Shown piece by piece: positions 1 to 29,852 of a stretch of DNA of 32,000 nucleotides. Below the pieces are notes generated by a model. That model did not search any database. It was not told the DNA's origin and saw only the letters and a list, made by a program, of their open reading frames with translations. The position numbers and the translations under genes are program-made. Source of the stretch: Alkalicoccus daliensis (GTDB lineage: Bacteria; Bacillota; Bacilli; Bacillales; Salisediminibacteriaceae); the NCBI RefSeq assembly GCF_900103955.1, contig NZ_FNIL01000014.1:1-32000 (forward strand), given 5' to 3'. Within the stretch, counting starts at the first letter, position 1; each line of letters begins with the position of its first letter.

Positions 1-790
1 GTAAAATAAGCGGGCAAGCGAATAAATTAGCTTCTTTTCCTCTGTCATTTTCCATTATGGGAATGGTTTGAATGAAGGAGGTCATATGCTTTTACAGGGT
101 TTGCCGTACCGAGCCGGCGCAGGCATAGCAAGGTGGAGTGCAGCATAGCATGGGTGGATTAAAGTATAGGAAGTTTTTATTAAAGTATGGGCGGATCGGA
201 GTAAAGCATAGCCTGTTTTCATGTCATTATAGGCGGATCGGAGTAAAATAGCAGCCACGACAGTAAAATAAGCGGGCAAGCGAATAAATTAGCTTCTTTT
301 CCTCTGTCATTTTCCATTATGGGAATGGTTTGAATGAAGGAGGTCATATGCTTTTACAGGGTTTGCCGTACCGAGCCGGCGCAGGCATAGCAAGGTGGAG
401 TGCAGCATAGCATGGGTGGATTAAAGTATAGGAAGTTTTTATTAAAGTATGGGCGGATCGGAGTAAAGCATAGCCTGTTTTCATGTCATTATAGGCGGAT
501 CGGAGTAAAATAGCAGCCACGACAGTAAAATAAGCGGGCAAGCGAATAAATTAGCTTCTTTTCCTCTGTCATTTTCCATTATGGGAATGGTTTGAATGAA
601 GGAGGTCATATGCTTTTACGGGGTTGCCGCACCGAGCCGACGCAGGCATAACAGGGTGGAGTGCAGCATAGCATGGGTGGATTAAAGTATAGAGGAATTG
701 GGTTAAAGCATAGGAGGTTTGGAGTAAAATATAGAGGAGTTGAAGTAAATTAAAGGGAAGATCAGTAAAGTATAAGCAGATCTGAGTATA
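1..790. repeat. Higher-order tandem repeat array 1. The unit is 262 bp. Units 1-262 and 263-524 are identical, and the third unit (525 to about 790) is diverged. Each unit has a roughly 70-bp core plus about 10 degenerate 20-21-bp sub-repeats (GCGGATCGGAGTAAAGCATAGC-like).
   Basis: Direct reading shows the sequence from 1 repeating exactly from 263 and again from 525. The identical 65-aa shadow ORFs at 82-279 and 344-541 confirm the 262-bp period. The array touches the window edge, so it may extend upstream. Confidence 0.9.
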
Positions 791-12204: not shown

Positions 12205-12415
12205 CTATGCTTGCGCAGCCGGGACAGTGCGGGGGATTTGAAAAAATGAATTCCACCGCTGGAAAAATGAATTCCTTCAAAATTCCCTTCTTAAAAATGA
12301 GTAACCCCCACTTACGCGTGAGTAAATGGTCTGCGCGAGAGTTAACCCCGAAGAAAAATGAGTAAACCTCTATTACGTATGAGAAAATGGTCTCTAAAAA
12401 AGAGTAAAAGCCATT
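12205..12415. repeat. Degenerate array of roughly 20-bp sub-repeats of the GAGTAAA type (AAAAATGAATTCC / AAAAATGAGTAAC / GTGAGTAAATGGTCT ...)
   Basis: Direct reading finds at least 7 related short units in an intergenic region. The array is preceded by GGAGG-N8-ATGCTT, resembling the core end (AAGGAGGTCATATGCTT) of the 262-bp repeat family. Confidence 0.5.
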
Positions 12416-14722: not shown

Positions 14723-14760
14723 GAATTATGCTCACAGGTTTAATGTATACGGCTGCAATT

Positions 14761-14803
14761 AAAAAAAGATGTCTCCGCCTCCGTGGCAGAAAACATCTTT
14801 TTT
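14761..14803 (-). terminator. Terminator downstream of the lipoprotein gene 14810-15013
   Basis: The hairpin AAGATGT...ACATCTT is flanked by A and T runs. Confidence 0.65.
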
Positions 14804-14809
14804 AAGCAG

Positions 14810-15013
14810 TTACGTGTTGTTACTTTCGTTACTCGTACCTTCTTCATTTCCGGTGTCATGTTCCATTTCGTTTCCGGTATCAGTACTGTTGATTCCGTTG
14901 TTTTCATTGAATCCATTTTCCGGAGCGTTGTTATTATCTGTTCCGCCGCAGCCTGCGAGCAGTGCTCCCGCAAGAAAAGTTGCTGCAGCAGTTAATTGAA
15001 GTGATTTTTTCAT
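14810..15013 (-). CDS. Small hyper-acidic N/D/E/G-rich lipoprotein (67 aa), paralog 1 of 3
   Basis: MKKSLQLTAAATFLAGALLAGC provides the lipobox LAGC. The RBS is AATAGGAGG. The mature peptide is low complexity (N, E, D, T, G). Confidence 0.8.
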   Translation of the reverse strand: MKKSLQLTAAATFLAGALLAGCGGTDNNNAPENGFNENNGINSTDTGNEMEHDTGNEEGTSNESNNT

Positions 15014-15069
15014 TTTGGTATTCCTCCTATTATCCTTCGTTTATCTTCTCATTCACGGTTACAAAAAAA

Positions 15070-15099
15070 TTGAAACATATTTTCCAGGATTCATATAAT
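15070..15099 (+). promoter_or_regulatory. Candidate sigma-A promoter on the plus strand, divergent from the 15013 gene and pointing at motif copy B and antisense to 15311-15514
   Basis: TTGAAA (15070-15075) and TATAAT (15094-15099) are separated by 18 bp. No credible plus-strand CDS lies downstream. Confidence 0.4.
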
Positions 15100-15169
15100 T
15101 TCACACACGAAAACCAATGTTACCATGATGCTTCAGACGAAAAAGTATGAAGCATAGAGGAATTTCTAT

Positions 15170-15248
15170 TACTGCTTCACTCCCGGCAAAGTCTTTCTCG
15201 AAGGTATGCTCTCTATTAATTTAATCAAAGCGGTGCACGGCTTCCATC
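15170..15248 (+). repeat. Bipartite conserved motif, copy B (TACTGCTTCACT - 53 nt - GCACGGCTTCCATC)
   Basis: The blocks are identical to copy A at 7687-7762. It is preceded by the hairpin ATGCTTCA-N12-TGAAGCAT (15128-15155), which repeats the TGCTTCA core. Confidence 0.4.
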
Positions 15249-15260
15249 AATCTGCAGGAG

Positions 15261-15299
15261 CAAACATAAACAAGGAATTCTCTTTCGAAAGAGAATTCC
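15261..15299 (-). terminator. Rho-independent terminator of lipoprotein gene 15311-15514
   Basis: On the minus strand, GGAATTCTCTTTCGAAAGAGAATTCC is followed by a T-rich tract (TTGTTTATGTTTG). Confidence 0.8.
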
Positions 15300-15310
15300 C
15301 AGAAACCAGC

Positions 15311-15514
15311 TTACATATTGTTCTCGTTCTCTCCGACAGGTTCACCATTATCATCCAGCATCGTATTGCCGTCTGCATCGTTATCAATCAATTGTTCTTC
15401 TTCATTCACTTCATTGTTATCATCAATACCTTCATTTGCATTATTACCGCAGCCGGCAAGAATACCAGCAGATAACAAAGTGAATACTGCAGAAATTTGT
15501 AAAGACTTTTTCAT
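15311..15514 (-). CDS. Small hyper-acidic N/D/E-rich lipoprotein (67 aa), paralog 2 of 3
   Basis: MKKSLQISAVFTLLSAGILAGC provides the lipobox. The RBS is GAAGGAGG. The N-terminus is near-identical to those of the neighbouring paralogs. Confidence 0.8.
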   Translation of the reverse strand: MKKSLQISAVFTLLSAGILAGCGNNANEGIDDNNEVNEEEQLIDNDADGNTMLDDNGEPVGENENNM

Positions 15515-15604
15515 TTATAATTTCCTCCTTCAAAAATACTCTTCTTATAAAAAGACTATTACACGATTCTTGCTTTTTAAAACGTTGTTTTCCAGGAGAA
15601 ATAA

Positions 15605-15634
15605 TATAAAAAGGCTCCCGGAAGTCCGGGAGCC
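15605..15634 (-). terminator. Rho-independent terminator of the poly-Asp lipoprotein gene
   Basis: On the minus strand, GGCTCCCGG-actt-CCGGGAGCC is followed by TTTTTAT. Confidence 0.85.
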
Positions 15635-15645
15635 CGCTTTAAAAA

Positions 15646-16032
15646 TTAAAGGTCGTCGTCATCGTCGTCATCGTTCATCATGCCATCATCATCGTCTTCG
15701 TCATCGTTCATCATGCCATCATCATCGTCGTCGTCATCGTCATTCATCATTGCGTCATCATCATCATCGTCGTCGTTCATCATAGCATCGTCATCGTCGT
15801 CATCGTCATTCATCATTGCGTCATCATCATCGTCATCGTCGTTCATCATTGCGTCATCGTCATCATCGTCATCGTCATCGTTCATCATACCGTTATCTTC
15901 AGTATTGTTTACTGTGTTATCCGTTCCGGTATTCGTATTATTTACATCGTTATCTGCATCGTTACCGCAGCCTGCAAGCACCCCTGCTGCGAGTAGTCCT
16001 GAGATTGCTGAAATTTGTAATGATTTTTTCAT
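15646..16032 (-). CDS. Poly-aspartate repeat lipoprotein (128 aa), paralog 3 of 3
   Basis: MKKSLQISAISGLLAAGVLAGC provides the lipobox. The RBS is TAAGGAGG. An N/T/D linker is followed by seven MMNDDDDDDD(A/G) units. Confidence 0.85.
   Translation of the reverse strand: MKKSLQISAISGLLAAGVLAGCGNDADNDVNNTNTGTDNTVNNTEDNGMMNDDDDDDDDDAMMNDDDDDDDAMMNDDDDDDDAMMNDDDDDDDAMMNDDDDDDDDGMMNDDEDDDDGMMNDDDDDDDL
15649..15888 (-). repeat. Intragenic tandem repeat, 33-39-bp period x7, encoding MMN-(D)7-9-(A/G/L)
   Basis: The periodicity is visible in both DNA and protein. The units differ by synonymous GAT/GAC changes. Confidence 0.85.
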
Positions 16033-16397
16033 TGTAATAATTCCTCCTTAATAATTGCTTTCATGTCTCTACTCCCTCTCATTACACTTAGCCGTAATGT
16101 TAAAACATTCTACACGACTTTTTGACACTTTTTCATATTGTGCACCTATTTCATAATGGATGCATAACAAATGTCTACATATTAATAGCAAAATTAAACG
16201 ACGAAAGATTATCTTTTGAAAGAATTAAAATAAGAAAAAATGTGTATTTACAAAAGCAGCTAATTCCTCCATAAACCAATTTGTAATAAACTATTAATTA
16301 GGAAAATAGAAAACACTCCCCTTAAAGCGCTTGTTCGTAGTATGATAAAGAGATACTAATGAACCGGAGTACGGTTGGAAAATGAGGGAAATAAATA

Positions 16398-21169: not shown

Positions 21170-22777
21170 ATGGATGGCATGAACAGGATGACGGGGTTTG
21201 CCTCCGGAATGGATATAAACCAGATGGTATCAGATTTAATGCGAGCGGAGCGGCAACCGCTGGAACCTATGCAGCAGAATTCTATGGAGCTGCAGCTGAA
21301 AATTGATGAATACAGGCAGATGAATTTAAAATTTTCGGAGTTTCGCAACAACACGTTTGACGGTATTTTACGCTCCTCTAACATGCGGTCAAGAGAAACT
21401 GTCAGTTCCAATGAAGCTGCTGTGACTGCACGGGCTTCCGCAAGTACGCCAGAGGGAAGCTACACCATATCCGATGCTTCTCTCGCCAGGGCGGAAATGC
21501 ACGTATCTGAAGCGGCGGGAGAAAACGGGTCTTTTGTAAATGACCTAGCTGCATTTGACCGCAGTGAAAGTTTTCTCCAGCAGGCAGAACTTTTACATGG
21601 CGTAGAAGAAGGCCAGACCGAAGCTGCGTTTGCTATTGCAGTATTTGATGAAAATGGTGCTGCAGTGCCGCAGGAATTTACTGTGGATGAAAGCAGCAGT
21701 CTCGATGATATTCTCAATGATGTGAATCAGTCTGCATTAGGTGTACAGGCTTTTTATGATGAATTCTCCGGAAGGATTTCTCTGCAGAGAGCAGAAACGG
21801 GCGTTTTTAATGAGACTGGGAATGAAATTCAGTTTGGGGAAATAGATGCAGACGGGGAGTTTATAGAAGCTGAACCAGGAGAGCAGCATTTCTTTTCCAC
21901 GGCCTTTGGGCTGGAAAACAATACGCCGATGCAGGAAGCAGCAAATGCGGCCTTTACGATGAATGGGCTCAGTGAAATGGAAAGACGCAGCAATTCTTTT
22001 GAAATAAACGGGTTAAATGTAACTTTGAATCAGCCCTTCACTGAACAAGTATCGATCGGTGTATCTTCAGATGACGAAAAAATATTTGATACAGTAATGG
22101 GATTTGTTGAAGATTATAATGAGCTCGTAAGTGCAATGCAGGAAAAAACAGGGGAAGAATATTTCCGGGATTATGCACCTCTAACAGATGAGCAGCGGAG
22201 AGAATTATCAGACACAGAGGTGGAAATGTGGGAGGAAAAGTCAAACAGCGGCCTGCTGCGGAGAGACAGTATTATTTCGGGTGCGGTCAGCTCCATGAGA
22301 TCCCAGTTTTATGAACCGGTGAATACAGCGGATGGTGATCAGGCTTTCACACAGATTACAGAAATAGGCATAACTACTTCCACCGATTTCCGCCAGGGCG
22401 GGATACTGGAAGTGAATGAGGAGCAGCTGCGCGCCTCTATCGCGGAAGATCCGGATGCGGTATTTAACTTATTTGCCGCAGATGGAGAAACACAGGAAGA
22501 GCGCGGAATAGCGAGAAGGCTCCGTGCTACGCTCGACGACAGCATCCAGCAGATCGGACAGCGTGCCGGACGCACGGAAATGTCCGGGAATCAGACATTT
22601 ACTCTCGGCAGGGAGCTCGAACAGCAGTCAGATCAAATTTCGAATTTTGAGCGACGGATGCAGCAGGTCGAACAGCGTTACTGGAGCCAGTTCAATGCTA
22701 TGGAACAGGCAATGGCCCGTGCGAACGCACAGGCCGAACAGCTGATGTCGCAGATGGGCGGCAAGCAGGGAATGTAG
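21170..22777 (+). CDS. fliD: Flagellar filament cap protein FliD, copy 1 (535 aa)
   Basis: The N-terminus is GFASGMDINQMVSDLMRAERQPL. The C-terminal FliD helix is FERRMQQVEQRYWSQFNAMEQAM. Confidence 0.85.
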   Translation: MDGMNRMTGFASGMDINQMVSDLMRAERQPLEPMQQNSMELQLKIDEYRQMNLKFSEFRNNTFDGILRSSNMRSRETVSSNEAAVTARASASTPEGSYTISDASLARAEMHVSEAAGENGSFVNDLAAFDRSESFLQQAELLHGVEEGQTEAAFAIAVFDENGAAVPQEFTVDESSSLDDILNDVNQSALGVQAFYDEFSGRISLQRAETGVFNETGNEIQFGEIDADGEFIEAEPGEQHFFSTAFGLENNTPMQEAANAAFTMNGLSEMERRSNSFEINGLNVTLNQPFTEQVSIGVSSDDEKIFDTVMGFVEDYNELVSAMQEKTGEEYFRDYAPLTDEQRRELSDTEVEMWEEKSNSGLLRRDSIISGAVSSMRSQFYEPVNTADGDQAFTQITEIGITTSTDFRQGGILEVNEEQLRASIAEDPDAVFNLFAADGETQEERGIARRLRATLDDSIQQIGQRAGRTEMSGNQTFTLGRELEQQSDQISNFERRMQQVEQRYWSQFNAMEQAMARANAQAEQLMSQMGGKQGM

Positions 22778-23731: not shown

Positions 23732-23788
23732 TATATCGTTTAATGATATATCTGTTAATAATATATCATTAAACGATATAATGATCAA
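23732..23788 (-). promoter_or_regulatory. PadR promoter with a perfect 20-bp inverted repeat (probable autoregulatory operator)
   Basis: TATATCGTTTAATGATATAT (23732-23751) and its exact reverse complement (23761-23780) are separated by 9 bp. On the minus strand, -35 TTGATC (23783-23788) and -10 TATATT (23760-23765) are separated by 17 bp. Confidence 0.65.
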
Positions 23789-25653: not shown

Positions 25654-25721
25654 GATAAATAGCATAATATATCGGGTAATTTACAGTTCCATACAACAGA
25701 ATAGTCAGAGGAGTGAAAGAC

Positions 25722-27509
25722 ATGCGGCTTAGCGGATTTGCTACCGGAATGGATATCAATCAGATGGTGAAGGATTTAATGCAGGCGGAAAAAATGCCTT
25801 TAAAAAAATTAGAGCAGAATAAAACATCTACACAGTGGAAGATTGATCAATACAGAGAAATTAATGTGAAGATGGATAAATTCAGAAACAATACGTTTGA
25901 TAATGTCATGCGACGTGCCAATATGATGATGAATACGGTAGTGAGTTCCAACGCATCGCTTGTCACTGCGACAGGAAATGCATCTACGTTAGAAGGAACG
26001 CTGCGTTTAACAGAAGTGAAAAAACTGGCTTCCGCAGCTTCAAATGCGAGCAGTGCTCCGGTAGCTGATAAATTAAATGTGACCGGAAAACTTTCTGAAC
26101 AGAATTTTAAAGCAGCGGAAGGGGAAATGTGGAAAACAGGAACGGTAAACAGGCAGACGGTGACCGTACAGCAGTCACAATCTACCATTGATTTGAACGT
26201 GGAGCTCGGAAATCCTGATTCCACAGTCGTGCGGGTCAATGGGGTTTCTTATAAGGTAGTAGAAGAAATGCCGGAAGGCGGACTAACTGCAACACAGGTA
26301 ATGCTTGATGCGGATTCCAAACAGCTTGTATTCGGCTCTGCTTTAGCCCGGAATGCTAAGGTGGAAGTTGTGACGGCAATTGAAGGAGAAGGAACGGATA
26401 AATTCTCCATGAATTCTATTACTACTTTTAATAAAGACGGCCAGGAAGTAAAGGAAAACTTTATTGTTACCGGTAATCAGACTATGAATGAAGTTATGTC
26501 TATGCTGAACCGTTCAAAAGCAGGCGTCAGCACTTTTTATGATACAGGAACGGACCGTGTCTCCATCGTACGGAACGATACTGGAATTTTTGCTCCGGAA
26601 GGCAGTGAAATGCGTTTTTCCGGCTCCTTTTTCGAACAGGGACTAAAGCTGAGCGATACGAATGAAATTGCCGCACAAAATGCAACGTTTACGATTAACG
26701 GTTTGGAAACAACGAGGCGTTCCAATACTTTTTCGGTCAACGGCATGAACATTACGCTGCATGAAACTTTTGCAAACCGGGAAGTGAATTTAAACGTTAA
26801 GCGGGATACAGATAAAATTGTAGAAACGATTATGTCTTTTGTAAATGAATATAATGAACTTCTCGAACTGGTGAATGGTAAAACAAGCCAGGAATTTTTC
26901 CGGGATTATCCACCGCTGACAGAAGAAGAACGGCGTGAGTTATCAGAGCGGGAAGCAGAACTCTGGGATGAAAAAGCAATGAGCGGCCTGCTCCGCAATG
27001 ATTCCATGCTGAGAAACGGCATGAATAATTTCCGCCAGCAGATGTACGGCCAGGTAACAGGCGGGATTGATACGCAAATACGGCAGCTTGCCCAGATAGG
27101 AATTACCACTACGTCCAATTTCCGTGACGGCGGAAAGCTGGAAGTAAATGAAGATCGTCTTCGTGCAGCTATCGAAAGCGATGCAGAGGGTGTCTATCAG
27201 CTGTTCGCGGCAGATGGTCCCACCCAGGCAGAGCAGGGAATTGCCAGAAGAGTCCGGACGAGTGCGAATACAATGATTGAAGCGATTGCGCAGAGAGCCG
27301 GAGGAATGCGGGGACGAACGGTGAACCAGCAGTTTACGCTCGGCCGGGAAATGAACAATATCGAAGACCGGATGACGAATTTTGAGCGGCGGATGAAGCA
27401 GGTGGAGCAGCGCTACTGGACACAGTTTACTGCGATGGAAAAAGCGGTATCCCGGGCAAATTCCCAGGGAGAAGCACTTTTTGCACAAATGTACGGAGGC
27501 ATGCAGTAA
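25722..27509 (+). CDS. fliD: Flagellar filament cap protein FliD, copy 2 (595 aa)
   Basis: The N-terminus is GFATGMDINQMVKDLMQAEKMPL and the C-terminus is FERRMKQVEQRYWTQFTAMEKAV. The ATG at 25722 is 8 nt after AGAGGAG. Confidence 0.85.
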   Translation: MRLSGFATGMDINQMVKDLMQAEKMPLKKLEQNKTSTQWKIDQYREINVKMDKFRNNTFDNVMRRANMMMNTVVSSNASLVTATGNASTLEGTLRLTEVKKLASAASNASSAPVADKLNVTGKLSEQNFKAAEGEMWKTGTVNRQTVTVQQSQSTIDLNVELGNPDSTVVRVNGVSYKVVEEMPEGGLTATQVMLDADSKQLVFGSALARNAKVEVVTAIEGEGTDKFSMNSITTFNKDGQEVKENFIVTGNQTMNEVMSMLNRSKAGVSTFYDTGTDRVSIVRNDTGIFAPEGSEMRFSGSFFEQGLKLSDTNEIAAQNATFTINGLETTRRSNTFSVNGMNITLHETFANREVNLNVKRDTDKIVETIMSFVNEYNELLELVNGKTSQEFFRDYPPLTEEERRELSEREAELWDEKAMSGLLRNDSMLRNGMNNFRQQMYGQVTGGIDTQIRQLAQIGITTTSNFRDGGKLEVNEDRLRAAIESDAEGVYQLFAADGPTQAEQGIARRVRTSANTMIEAIAQRAGGMRGRTVNQQFTLGREMNNIEDRMTNFERRMKQVEQRYWTQFTAMEKAVSRANSQGEALFAQMYGGMQ

Positions 27510-27949: not shown

Positions 27950-27974
27950 TAAAATTGTGACTTTCGTCCGATAT
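27950..27974 (+). promoter_or_regulatory. Sigma-D-like promoter upstream of flaG (short spacer)
   Basis: The match is TAAA-N13-TCCGATAT. It shares ACTTTCG..CCGATATAAGGGA with the fliS promoter at 29171-29197. Confidence 0.4.
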
Positions 27975-28011: not shown

Positions 28012-28395
28012 ATGGAAGTGCAATCAATGCGCTCGGGACAGGAACTGCCGCCGTTGAAAAAAACGGAAGCAGCACCTGTTCAGCTGCGACAGGCTTCAAT
28101 ACCACAAGGAAGTGCAGACAAAGGCTCCCGGGAGGATGTAACACATTCTCTGGAGCGGAGCAAGGAGTGGTCGCAGGACGATCTCGACCGGGGCATAGAA
28201 GCAATGAATGATCTTTCTGTTTTCAGAGAGAGATCCCTTGCCTTTGAGCATCATGAAAAGCTCAATCGGACAATGGTAAAAATCATTGATCGGGAAACGG
28301 AAGAAGTTGTCCGGGAAATCCCTCCAGAAAAGTTTCTGGATATGATCTCCTCCATGCTCGAATTCGCCGGTATTATTATCGACGAAAAAGTTTAA
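28012..28395 (+). CDS. flaG: Flagellar protein FlaG (YvyC-like)
   Basis: The C-terminal FlaG signature is FEHHEKLNRTMVKIIDRETEEVVREIPPEKFLDM. The RBS AGGAG precedes the ATG at 28012. Confidence 0.8.
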   Translation: MEVQSMRSGQELPPLKKTEAAPVQLRQASIPQGSADKGSREDVTHSLERSKEWSQDDLDRGIEAMNDLSVFRERSLAFEHHEKLNRTMVKIIDRETEEVVREIPPEKFLDMISSMLEFAGIIIDEKV

Positions 28396-28397
28396 GG

Positions 28398-28457
28398 AAA
28401 ACACAAACAGCGGAAAGCCGGCAATGCTGGTTCTTTCCGCTTTTGTGTTTTTTTATT
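28398..28457 (+). terminator. Strong rho-independent terminator after flaG
   Basis: A long stem (AAAACACAAACAGCGGAAAG ... CTTTCCGCTTTTGTGTTTT) is followed by a T-run. Confidence 0.85.
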
Positions 28458-28461
28458 GATT

Positions 28462-29105
28462 TGGAGGAGATAGTTCAGGATAGCGTGGTGACATGTCAGT
28501 ATAGAGGATTTATGTGTCATTATAGAGGGTTTGCATGTTAGTATAGCCGGTTTGTATTAAAGCATAGCGGCATCGGAGTAAAGCATAGCGGATTTGGAGT
28601 AAAATAAGGTGCGTGACAGTAAAATAAGCGGGCACGGACGTAAATTAGCTTCTTTATTTTAAGTTTCTCTATCGGGGAACGGTTTTAAATGAAGAAGGTA
28701 ATATGCTTTTATGGCTTTTGAGTCCGAATCAGTACAGGATAGCGTGGTGACATGTCAGTATAGAGGGTTTGCATGTTAATATAGCCGGTTTGGATTAAAG
28801 CATAGCGGCATCGGAGTAAAGCATAGCGGATTTGGAGTAAAATAAGGTGCGTGACAGTAATATAAACGGGCACGGACGTAAATTAACTTCTTTATTTTAA
28901 GTTTCTCTATCAGGAAACGGTTTTAAATGAAGAAGGTAATATGCTTTTACGACTTGCGCTCTCGGGTCAGTAAAGTATAGCGTGGTGACATGTCATTATA
29001 GAGGGTTCGCATGTTAGTATAGCCGGTTTGGATTAAAGCATAGCGGCATCGGAGTAAAGCATAGCGGATTTGGAGTAAAATAGGGTGCGTGACAGTAAAA
29101 TAAGC
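28462..29105. repeat. Higher-order tandem repeat array 2. It belongs to the same family as array 1, with units of about 259 and 238 bp plus a partial third unit.
   Basis: The unit start CAGGATAGCGTGGTGACATGTCAGTATAG recurs at 28476 and 28735, and in diverged form at 28973. The sub-repeats (TAAAGCATAGCGGCATCGGAG...) and the core (TAAATTAGCTTCTT...GAAGAAGGTAATATGCTTTTA) are homologous to array 1. Confidence 0.9.
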
Positions 29106-29170
29106 TCCCCTCTTTCCCGGAACAATGAGCGGCTTCCCTTCATTTTGGAAAAGAATTTCTAGCATACACC

Positions 29171-29197
29171 TAAAACTTTCGACCTGTGTGCCGATAT
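29171..29197 (+). promoter_or_regulatory. Sigma-D-type promoter upstream of fliS
   Basis: TAAA (29171-29174)-N15-GCCGATAT (29190-29197) is an exact consensus match. Confidence 0.7.
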
Positions 29198-29285
29198 AAG
29201 GGACAGGTTGAAAATAACTGCTCGGCAGAAGAGTCTATGTGTTATGTGCCGAAGATTTTAATGATAGAAAGGGTGTCCATGTAGC

Positions 29286-29852
29286 ATGGCTGCAAACAAT
29301 CCATACGCAACATACAAGCAGAATTCATTTGAGACAAAGTCCGCAGGGGAATTAACGTTAATGCTTTATGAAGGCTGCCTAAAGTTTATAAAGCGGGCAG
29401 AAAAGGCAATAGATGACAATCAGATGGAAGAAAAGAATACGAATCTTATTAAAGCGCAGAATATTGTACGTGAGCTGATGGTTACTTTGGATATGAAAGT
29501 GGCAGTTAGTAAAGACATGCTGCCGATGTATGATTATATTTTAAATCAGCTGATTGAAGCAAATATGAAAAACGATAAAGAAGCACTTCAGAATGCTGCA
29601 CAGTTTGTGGCAGATTTCCGAGATACGTGGAAGGAAGTTATTAAAGCAGACAGGCAGTCCCGTCACGGGCAGAAAGCCGCCCCAGCTGAGCCGGCAGCAG
29701 CACCGTCTGAACCGGCCGCAGCTCCTTCGAAACAAGATGCTACCGTTAATCCGTATGCCAAGGCGCGGATGCAGAATCCATATGCAGCAAATGCATCAAA
29801 TCCTTATGCAAAAGCGAAGCAGGCAGCCGCCGCTGCTGCGGCAAAAGGGTAA
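29286..29852 (+). CDS. fliS: Flagellin-specific export chaperone FliS with a ~55-aa low-complexity C-terminal extension
   Basis: The N-terminus NNPYATYKQNSFETKSAGELTLMLYEG and a four-helix FliS core are present. The tail is AAPAEPAAAPSEPAAAPS followed by 3x NPYA. Confidence 0.85.
   Translation: MAANNPYATYKQNSFETKSAGELTLMLYEGCLKFIKRAEKAIDDNQMEEKNTNLIKAQNIVRELMVTLDMKVAVSKDMLPMYDYILNQLIEANMKNDKEALQNAAQFVADFRDTWKEVIKADRQSRHGQKAAPAEPAAAPSEPAAAPSKQDATVNPYAKARMQNPYAANASNPYAKAKQAAAAAAAKG

Follow-up and report, generated by a model that had tools for sequence, protein, structure and literature searches.

Between flaG and fliS, in the late flagellar cluster of Alkalicoccus daliensis, lies a tandem repeat array, and the locus raises the question of what such an array is and whether it serves the genes beside it. 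The stretch examined here (the window) comprises the first 32,000 nucleotides of contig NZ_FNIL01000014.1, and all coordinates given for this genome are window positions. A preliminary description, made from the letters alone, had noticed this array (array 2) and a related one at the start of the window (array 1), and had speculated that the RNA from array 2 might titrate CsrA. In this study, array 2 is found to be real and to lie outside every curated family tested. We tentatively regard it as one copy of a non-coding, fast-evolving, lineage-restricted repeat family of the minisatellite type that colonises the gaps between a terminator and the next gene.

Structure of array 2

Tandem Repeats Finder reported array 2 at 28515-29103, with a period of 238, 2.5 copies, 93% matches and a score of 1029, together with nested 21-nt arrays. 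A repeat search gave 238-nt copies that start at 28497, 28735 and 28973. As had been described, the units measure 259 bp and then 238 bp and are followed by a partial third, which ends within a sub-repeat block. The first unit is 259 bp long because it carries one additional 21-nt sub-repeat at 28500-28520. Units 2 and 3 are 91.7% identical; an exact 21-mer occurs three times (0 in 100 shuffles), and the self-identity at lag 21 is 0.61, compared with 0.41 for the 99th percentile of shuffles. The consensus of the sub-repeat is YATAGCGGNTTTGGAGTAAAG. In either array, the unit consists of a linker of ~27 nt, a set of seven or eight degenerate sub-repeats of 21 nt whose order is fixed, and a hairpin core. 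The size of this higher-order unit is 238-262 bp across both arrays. The parts of array 2 are:

28451-29105, plus strand: array 2 as a whole, three sub-repeat blocks with two hairpin cores between them; the left limit is approximate
28479-28646, plus strand: sub-repeat block a, eight 21-nt sub-repeats including the additional one; it opens with the palindrome TGACATGTCA at 28489-28498
28640-28712, plus strand: core 1, a long imperfect hairpin followed by UUUUAU; it holds a Shine-Dalgarno (SD)-like GAAGAAGG and an ATG
28644-28662 and 28684-28702, plus strand: arms of the core 1 hairpin, with an inner stem at 28663-28680
28712-28737, plus strand: linker 1, the fast-diverging segment 3' of core 1
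28738-28884, plus strand: sub-repeat block b, seven 21-nt sub-repeats
28878-28950, plus strand: core 2, with a hairpin as in core 1, then UUUUAC
28950-28975, plus strand: linker 2, taken from the unit alignment
28976-29105, plus strand: sub-repeat block c, which terminates in ...CAGTAAAATAAGC; array 1 ends with the same motif (762-776)

The linkers of ~27 nt hold about half of all differences among otherwise near-identical units. Linkers 1 and 2 are ~56% identical by manual count on the alignment, whereas the rest of the unit is mostly near-identical. The plus strand of array 2 contains 12% C and has a GC skew of +0.39, compared with +0.08 for the window. The source assembly appears to be a short-read draft, and a second, independent assembly made from reads of this strain is interrupted at either edge of array 2. 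This indicates that the repeat is real and that its copy number is the draft's figure only.

The perfect 10-bp palindrome TGACATGTCA opens every block of array 2 (28489-28498, 28748-28757 and 28986-28995) and is not found in array 1; it could be a binding site for a dimeric protein. The segment that follows the hairpin, TATGCTTTTAT (28702-28712), is 91% complementary to the sub-repeat motif ATTAAAGCATA (28556-28566, 28794-28804 and 29032-29042), and the core therefore holds an inverted fragment of a sub-repeat.

Relation to array 1

Array 1 (1-790, plus strand) is a member of the same family; it lies 5' of a GNAT gene and is cut by the window start. Tandem Repeats Finder described it as a repeat with a period of 262 and 98% matches at 1-692, then a degenerate 21-nt tail to ~790, and found nested 21-nt arrays here as well. 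The units at 1-262 and 263-524 are 100% identical, and the diverged third unit, at the edge, is 84% identical to them. The species' contig starts inside array 1, where the draft assembly probably broke in the repeat.

Alignment confirmed that the two arrays belong to one family and share the same orientation. Units are much closer within an array (84-100% identity) than between arrays (64-69% counting gaps, 75-83% ungapped), and the earlier estimate by eye that about three quarters of core positions are shared proved accurate (81/106, or 76%). Both arrays terminate in CAGTAAA(GT)ATAAGC, beyond which the flanks have no significant likeness. The GNAT-desR-desK-des neighbourhood is kept in two relatives, where the spacer 5' of GNAT is only 95-130 bp and the site is empty. 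In this genome, the family is present in at least two terminator-to-gene gaps that are unrelated to each other, with two copies inside the 32-kb window. The possibility that arrays 1 and 2 are the borders of a 28-kb island was rejected; the content consists of ordinary chromosomal genes that are syntenic with relatives.

The flaG-fliS site

The features on the two sides of array 2 are listed below; both promoters were read from the sequence.

27967-27974, plus strand: -10 box of the flaG promoter, sigma-D-type TCCGATAT, with TAAA at 27950-27953
28012-28395, plus strand: flaG coding sequence (Pfam FlaG, 6e-25)
28397-28452, plus strand: flaG intrinsic terminator (-31.2 kcal/mol, z -6.7, 0/200 shuffles), whose T-tract runs into the left edge of the array
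29106-29170, plus strand: C-rich right flank, CTCCCCTCTTTCCC..., which separates array 2 from the fliS promoter; its alignment with the arrayless site in the closest relative is only partial
29171-29197, plus strand: fliS sigma-D promoter, TAAA (29171-29174)-N15-GCCGATAT (29190-29197)
29286-29852, plus strand: fliS coding sequence (Pfam FliS, 7e-37)

Thus, the strong flaG terminator and the fliS sigma-D promoter described earlier do bracket the array. The flaG promoter has a spacing of 13 nt and is less canonical than that of fliS. The flaG-fliS spacer is 890 bp here, compared with 122-414 bp in eight of eight related loci, all of which are arrayless; the array is indeed an insertion between these genes. 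The spacers of the relatives are:

L008: 185 bp, without array
L009, A. urumqiensis: 149 bp, without array
L010, A. chagannorensis: 414 bp, without array
L133: 180 bp, without array
L132, with the closest FliS (75% identical): 245 bp, without array
L155, B. daqingensis: 122 bp, without array
L153, Salipaludibacillus: 186 bp, without array
L154, B. selenitireducens: 156 bp, without array

The spacer sequence was read directly in L008, L009, L010 and L132, and L133 was assessed through its gene table only. All four spacers that were read contain a flaG terminator and a separate sigma-D-type fliS promoter (…CGATAT…). Counted over seven related spacers, this layout is present without any array in six. 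This indicates that the array entered a pre-existing gap and did not, as had been supposed, split what is normally a single unit. A further suggestion of the preliminary description does not hold: the ACTTTCG shared by the flaG and fliS promoters sits at unequal distances from the -10 box and is thus not an aligned duplication of a promoter around the insertion. The gene order here and in eight of eight relatives examined is fliD1...fliD2-fliT-flaG-fliS and differs from that of B. subtilis. The sites of arrays 1 and 2 are both empty in relatives, and comparison with the empty flaG-fliS site revealed no target-site duplication.

In the window, fliD1 (21170-22777) is followed by DUF2812 and PadR genes on the minus strand, a TetR gene, a cation-efflux gene and fliD2 (25713-27509), and then by a fliT-like gene, flaG, array 2, fliS, a DUF8042 gene and AXE1. 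The paralogues fliD1 and fliD2 share stretches of DNA that are 70-80% identical, and a fliD pair occurs in all relatives examined. TetR and efflux genes also lie between the fliD pair in A. chagannorensis and B. daqingensis. In the fliS leader (29222-29255), the complementary pair CTCGGCA…TGCCGAA is retained in L132 (~420-460) despite diverged surroundings and may form a leader hairpin of fliS; the minimum free energy (MFE) fold of the whole leader is unexceptional (z +0.7).

Periodic arrays in the flagellar spacers of relatives

Four relatives of the Alkalicoccus clade possess 21/42-nt periodic arrays of their own, located in other spacers of the same flagellar cluster and each directly 3' of the upstream gene's terminator:

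L008, 2758-2884: fliD1-fliD2 spacer, sub-repeat type TATAATGCACNTTC…
L133, 2722-2840: fliD1-fliD2 spacer, orthologous to the L008 array (z 26.8)
L133, 6896-7022: second array, fliS-DUF8042 spacer, sub-repeat type CTATCTGTTCGAAC…
L009, 2838-3006: fliD1-fliD2 spacer, sub-repeat type ATGGGAATGG…
L009, 6731-6902: second array, fliS-DUF8042 spacer, sub-repeat type ATGGGAATGG…
L010, about 700-900: array after fliD1

Lag 21 or 42 exceeds the shuffle 99th percentile in every one of these arrays. They are built from a G-rich head, six to nine sub-repeats and a C-rich tail, which is sometimes complementary to the head; in an L133 element, a 12-nt G-box/C-box pair is 92% complementary. Heads and tails are conserved among copies, and the head motif TGTCGAAAWTTGTTAT is common to the second L133 array and the L008 array (z 10.6). 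In L009, the alignment of the two arrays is 62% overall and much better over the sub-repeats and tail (by eye); they are one sub-repeat apart. Sub-repeat sequences differ between species, are alike within one genome and are unrelated to those of array 2, which these arrays nevertheless resemble in architecture. Presence and absence of the arrays vary among species: the flagellar clusters of B. daqingensis and two outgroups were examined and contain no periodic array of this sort. A survey of ~944 kb of unrelated loci gave 3.0 regions per 100 kb whose strongest period is 21/42, many of them likely coding.

Only one resemblance between the A. daliensis repeat and a relative's array was found, and it is marginal and in opposite orientation. 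A similarity between the array start and the post-fliD1 spacer of B. daqingensis was not significant (z about 0).

The core hairpin and the array ends

On the plus strand, the predicted hairpin of core 1 has a free energy of -23.1 kcal/mol (z -5.2), that of core 2 -18.5 kcal/mol (z -4.4), and that of the array 1 core -18.3 kcal/mol (z -2.3). The minus-strand folds reach -6.0 kcal/mol (z -1.0) in array 2 and -13.0 kcal/mol (z -2.5) in array 1. Each core carries a terminator-like hairpin; in five of five, the stem finishes with UGC, and UUUUA(U/C) comes next. A consensus fold of the three distinct cores contains 25 pairs, two of which are changed on both sides, which is weak support from three sequences only. 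As an intrinsic terminator, the core would have a U-tract of only UUUUA(U/C), and a simple scan picks only the inner stem at 28663-28680. Whole units show no consistent excess of structure over shuffles (z -2.7 in array 2, +0.2 in array 1).

Tandem miniature inverted-repeat transposable elements (MITEs), whose inverted repeats would meet to form the core hairpin, were considered and rejected: half-cores, which this arrangement predicts at either extremity of the array, are absent there. Among the 25 longest pairs listed by an inverted-repeat search, none is a terminal pair that joins the two ends of array 2. By eye, the ends show ~7 nt of imperfect complementarity (GGAGGAG on the left, CTCCCCTC on the right).

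Database searches and coding potential

The covariance models of Rfam 15 gave no match in either array even at E<=10, apart from terminator noise, and neither array contains a tRNA or tmRNA. No sigma-70-type promoter-like site was found in array 2 on either strand, and an informal look by eye turned up no convincing promoter of another sigma factor and no convincing box of a known regulator (Spo0A, DnaA, cre, RTP and others). This agrees with the earlier remark that the array has no convincing promoter.

Open reading frames (ORFs) in the array are short, lack a usable ribosome-binding site (RBS) and do not conserve their frame; those of the minus strand encode 41-72 aa. A profile of the longest of these had no homologue among 5.8 billion proteins, and no gene was called over the array region in the read assembly of this strain.

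The core pattern GAAGNAGGTNATATGCTTTTA gave five chance matches in 185,579 species genomes (one genome each), none in Bacillaceae; no match came from Alkalicoccus, which suggests that the collection lacks the source genome or has it masked. In metagenome contigs, the sub-repeat pattern hit 119 loci with one match each, which were judged to be chance, and BLAST and nhmmer searches with the unit profile revealed nothing real. Plasmid and phage searches gave no match, and viral contigs gave chance matches only. A 21-nt minisatellite in L042/L097, GAGTAAAGCATAGTGATTTAA, was rejected as a relative of the sub-repeat because the contig looks eukaryotic (microsatellites, no long ORFs) and had been picked by the search pattern itself.

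GGA motifs and CsrA

The preliminary description had proposed, as a speculation, that array 2 resembles multi-GGA RNAs that titrate CsrA, and had itself put the enrichment of GGA, by rough count, at only about two-fold. The 644 nt of the repeat contain 20 GGA, more than in dinucleotide shuffles (11.4±2.6) and than expected from base composition (15.3). The density of 3.1 per 100 nt is only 1.3 times that of the window's plus strand (2.4). The ANGGA context is not enriched (2 observed, 3.3 expected). In MFE folds, hairpin loops contain none of the 22 GGA of array 2, in line with the earlier admission that no clear hairpin presents this triplet, and 2 of the 27 in array 1. The unpaired probability of GGA in a partition-function fold of the plus strand is 0.41, compared with 0.39 for all triplets. 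Richness in GGA is not common to the relatives' arrays either: those of L008 and L133 contain none on the plus strand, and those of A. urumqiensis 7-8 per 100 nt. In B. subtilis, CsrA acts in the late flagellar cluster; it is antagonised by the protein FliW, and no small RNA (sRNA) sponge is known there (PMC6546359). The proposal is not supported, and a CsrA sponge is a very unlikely reading of the array. No sequence-level support was found for an RNA antagonist of CsrA at the flaG-fliS locus.

Other features of the window

Further repeats were noted. Between converging genes, a 40-nt direct repeat occurs twice at 12293-12393 (61 nt apart, 83% identity); each copy contains, by eye, the near-palindrome ACTTACGCGTGAGT, and the repeats may be an operator pair or terminator elements. 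Three small minus-strand ORFs at 14740-16051 share repeats of 28-57 nt at their 5' ends. One of them contains a 33/69-nt tandem repeat (TCGTCATCATCG…, 15653-15888) that would encode an acidic repeat, and the independent read assembly appears to break near it too. The divergent PadR-TetR intergenic region carries a perfect 20-bp inverted repeat (TATATCGTTTAATGATATAT / ATATATCATTAAACGATATA, 23732-23780), which is probably an operator.

Discussion

If array 2 belongs to a minisatellite-type family that colonises terminator-to-gene gaps, its place downstream of the flaG terminator and upstream of the fliS sigma-D promoter would be a 'safe' one. Slipped-strand mispairing or unequal recombination would lengthen and shorten the array in two registers: steps of 21 nt, as seen in the 259- and 238-bp units, and steps of whole units, as seen in the identical units of array 1. 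Inner units would be homogenised, and edge units would drift. Normal dynamics of tandem arrays (slippage, unequal exchange and homogenisation) can explain the 21-nt indels, the identical inner units, the drifting edges, the likeness within a genome and the patchy presence. The relatives' copies, which are alike within one genome and vary in presence among species, fit a dispersed, fast-evolving repeat. Copies would spread by some copy-and-paste or recombination route; this step we infer, because neither terminal inverted repeats nor a target duplication were found. The local effect of the array is probably passive: it would have moved the flaG terminator ~650 bp from the fliS promoter, and its two plus-strand modules of hairpin and U-tract would stop any read-through from flaG. 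The layout of the flaG and fliS transcription units is probably older than the array and would not require it.

Several observations weigh against this explanation. Neither a transposase associated with the array nor terminal inverted repeats nor a target-site duplication were found. The core hairpin is retained in both arrays and, in array 2, is far more stable on the plus strand; the composition of the array is strongly asymmetric between the strands (C 12%, GC skew +0.39). The divergence between arrays 1 and 2 is very uneven, and blocks with 16/16, 15/15 and 21/23 identical positions flank the hairpin beside a fast-diverging linker, which hints at constraint. In addition, six of six intergenic arrays found in relatives sit in spacers of the late flagellar cluster, in a sampling that was centred on that cluster and in which orthology leaves ~3-4 independent events. 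Such clustering could reflect function rather than local hopping. The uneven conservation between the arrays, the maintained hairpin and the recurring 21-nt arrays in the relatives' flagellar spacers keep functional readings alive.

One of these readings, which we consider not very likely, is a cis-acting DNA platform in which sites phased every 21 bp (two helical turns) would bind a DNA-binding or nucleoid protein and tune adjacent sigma-D promoters, namely that of fliS here and those of fliD2 or the DUF8042 gene in relatives. Every array shows significant 21/42-nt periodicity, sigma-D-type promoters lie 40-70 bp 3' of the arrays, those of relatives cluster in flagellar spacers, and a perfect palindrome opens each block of array 2; even the marginal, opposite-oriented resemblance to a relative's array would, if real, suit a role at the DNA level. 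However, sub-repeat sequences are unconserved between species, so a conserved regulator would have no conserved site. The GNAT gene 3' of array 1 lacks a sigma-D promoter in relatives, the flagellar promoters in question operate without any array in B. daqingensis and the outgroups, and no candidate binding protein is encoded beside any copy.

A repeated small RNA of the plus strand, with copies that end at the core hairpin and U-tract, is unlikely. It would serve as a sponge or decoy: its GGA motifs would capture CsrA, or its G-rich and SD-like motifs would capture C-rich sRNAs or ribosomes. The plus strand is in fact G-rich and C-poor, its stable hairpin shows a strand bias in array 2 and has UUUUA after it in each of the five cores, and the excess of GGA over shuffles, the very GGA-rich arrays of A. 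urumqiensis and the location in the cluster where CsrA acts in B. subtilis all fit such an RNA. Nevertheless, the promoter scan was negative and the array follows directly on a strong terminator; GGA is only 1.3 times as frequent as on the window's plus strand, without ANGGA enrichment, and is nearly absent from predicted loops, with background accessibility. The inconsistent structure of the units, the lack of plus-strand GGA in L008 and L133, the absence of an Rfam match and the FliW-based control of CsrA in B. subtilis point in the same direction. It is scarcely credible that the array encodes small heptad-repeat proteins, or leader peptides from an SD-ATG in each core. Such coding is suggested by the 21-nt period (seven codons), by AAGGAGG-N4-ATG in the array 1 cores and by the minus-strand ORFs of 41-72 aa. 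The peptides that follow the core ATG, however, share only MLL by manual translation and differ in length through frameshifts; there is no RBS for the minus-strand ORFs, whose frame is shifted by 20-nt sub-repeats in array 1, and neither the protein search nor the gene calls revealed a product.

In practice, the array causes assembly breaks, and it could be used for strain typing. Even if only selfish or neutral, it illustrates how repeats can be organised at a higher, satellite-like level in a bacterial chromosome. If instead the recurring 21-nt arrays after terminators are functional, they would point to an unknown control layer of sigma-D-dependent genes, in which the repeat period rather than the sequence would be the conserved property.

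Comparison with known systems places the minisatellite-type explanation in context. Modular intergenic repeats built around a tandem internal module are known as BOX in Streptococcus pneumoniae (boxB) and as MIRU in mycobacteria (MIRU units). They vary in copy number, lie between genes of the same orientation, and occur in many dispersed copies with conserved module sequences; MIRUs hold small ORFs overlapping the stop and start codons on either side. Array 2 shares the modular intergenic build, the tandem module, the variable copy number and the position between same-orientation genes, whereas conserved modules in many dispersed copies and overlapping ORFs of the MIRU type are not seen here. 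Plasmid iterons and the sites of LytTR regulators (9 bp with a 12-bp spacer) are protein-binding direct repeats phased at 21-22 bp. They resemble array 2 in their direct repeats and period of two helical turns; array 2 differs in its seven or eight diverged copies per block, its chromosomal terminator-promoter gap, the lack of an adjacent gene for a cognate protein and the lack of sequence conservation between species. The sRNAs of the CsrB/RsmZ type likewise offer a G-rich strand with repeated GGA, as found here near flagellar genes; in array 2, however, GGA lies outside hairpin loops and is marginally enriched, no promoter was found, and in Bacillus the antagonist of CsrA is a protein, FliW (PMC6546359).

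BrickBuilt, a minisatellite-bearing MITE of Porphyromonas gingivalis, consists of a leader, a 23-nt minisatellite and a tail, and is always intergenic, species-specific and present in 19 copies (Klein et al. 2015, PMC4596501). The two elements share no sequence similarity, and the host phyla differ. The repeat measures 21 nt here rather than 23 nt, its sub-repeats are strongly diverged and fixed in order, and the block with its hairpin core has been re-amplified as a higher-order unit of 238-262 bp. Moreover, the array shows no convincing terminal inverted repeats, lies directly after intrinsic terminators, and is known from two copies in the 32-kb window. The likenesses lie in the build: both elements are strictly intergenic, restricted to a species or genus and dispersed in several copies per genome, with internal imperfect tandem repeats of ~20 nt without spacers and a repeat number that varies among copies; flanking segments like a leader and a tail are clear in the relatives' elements. 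While a regulatory role is unproven, array 2 may be described as a genus-restricted minisatellite-bearing element with a BrickBuilt-like build.

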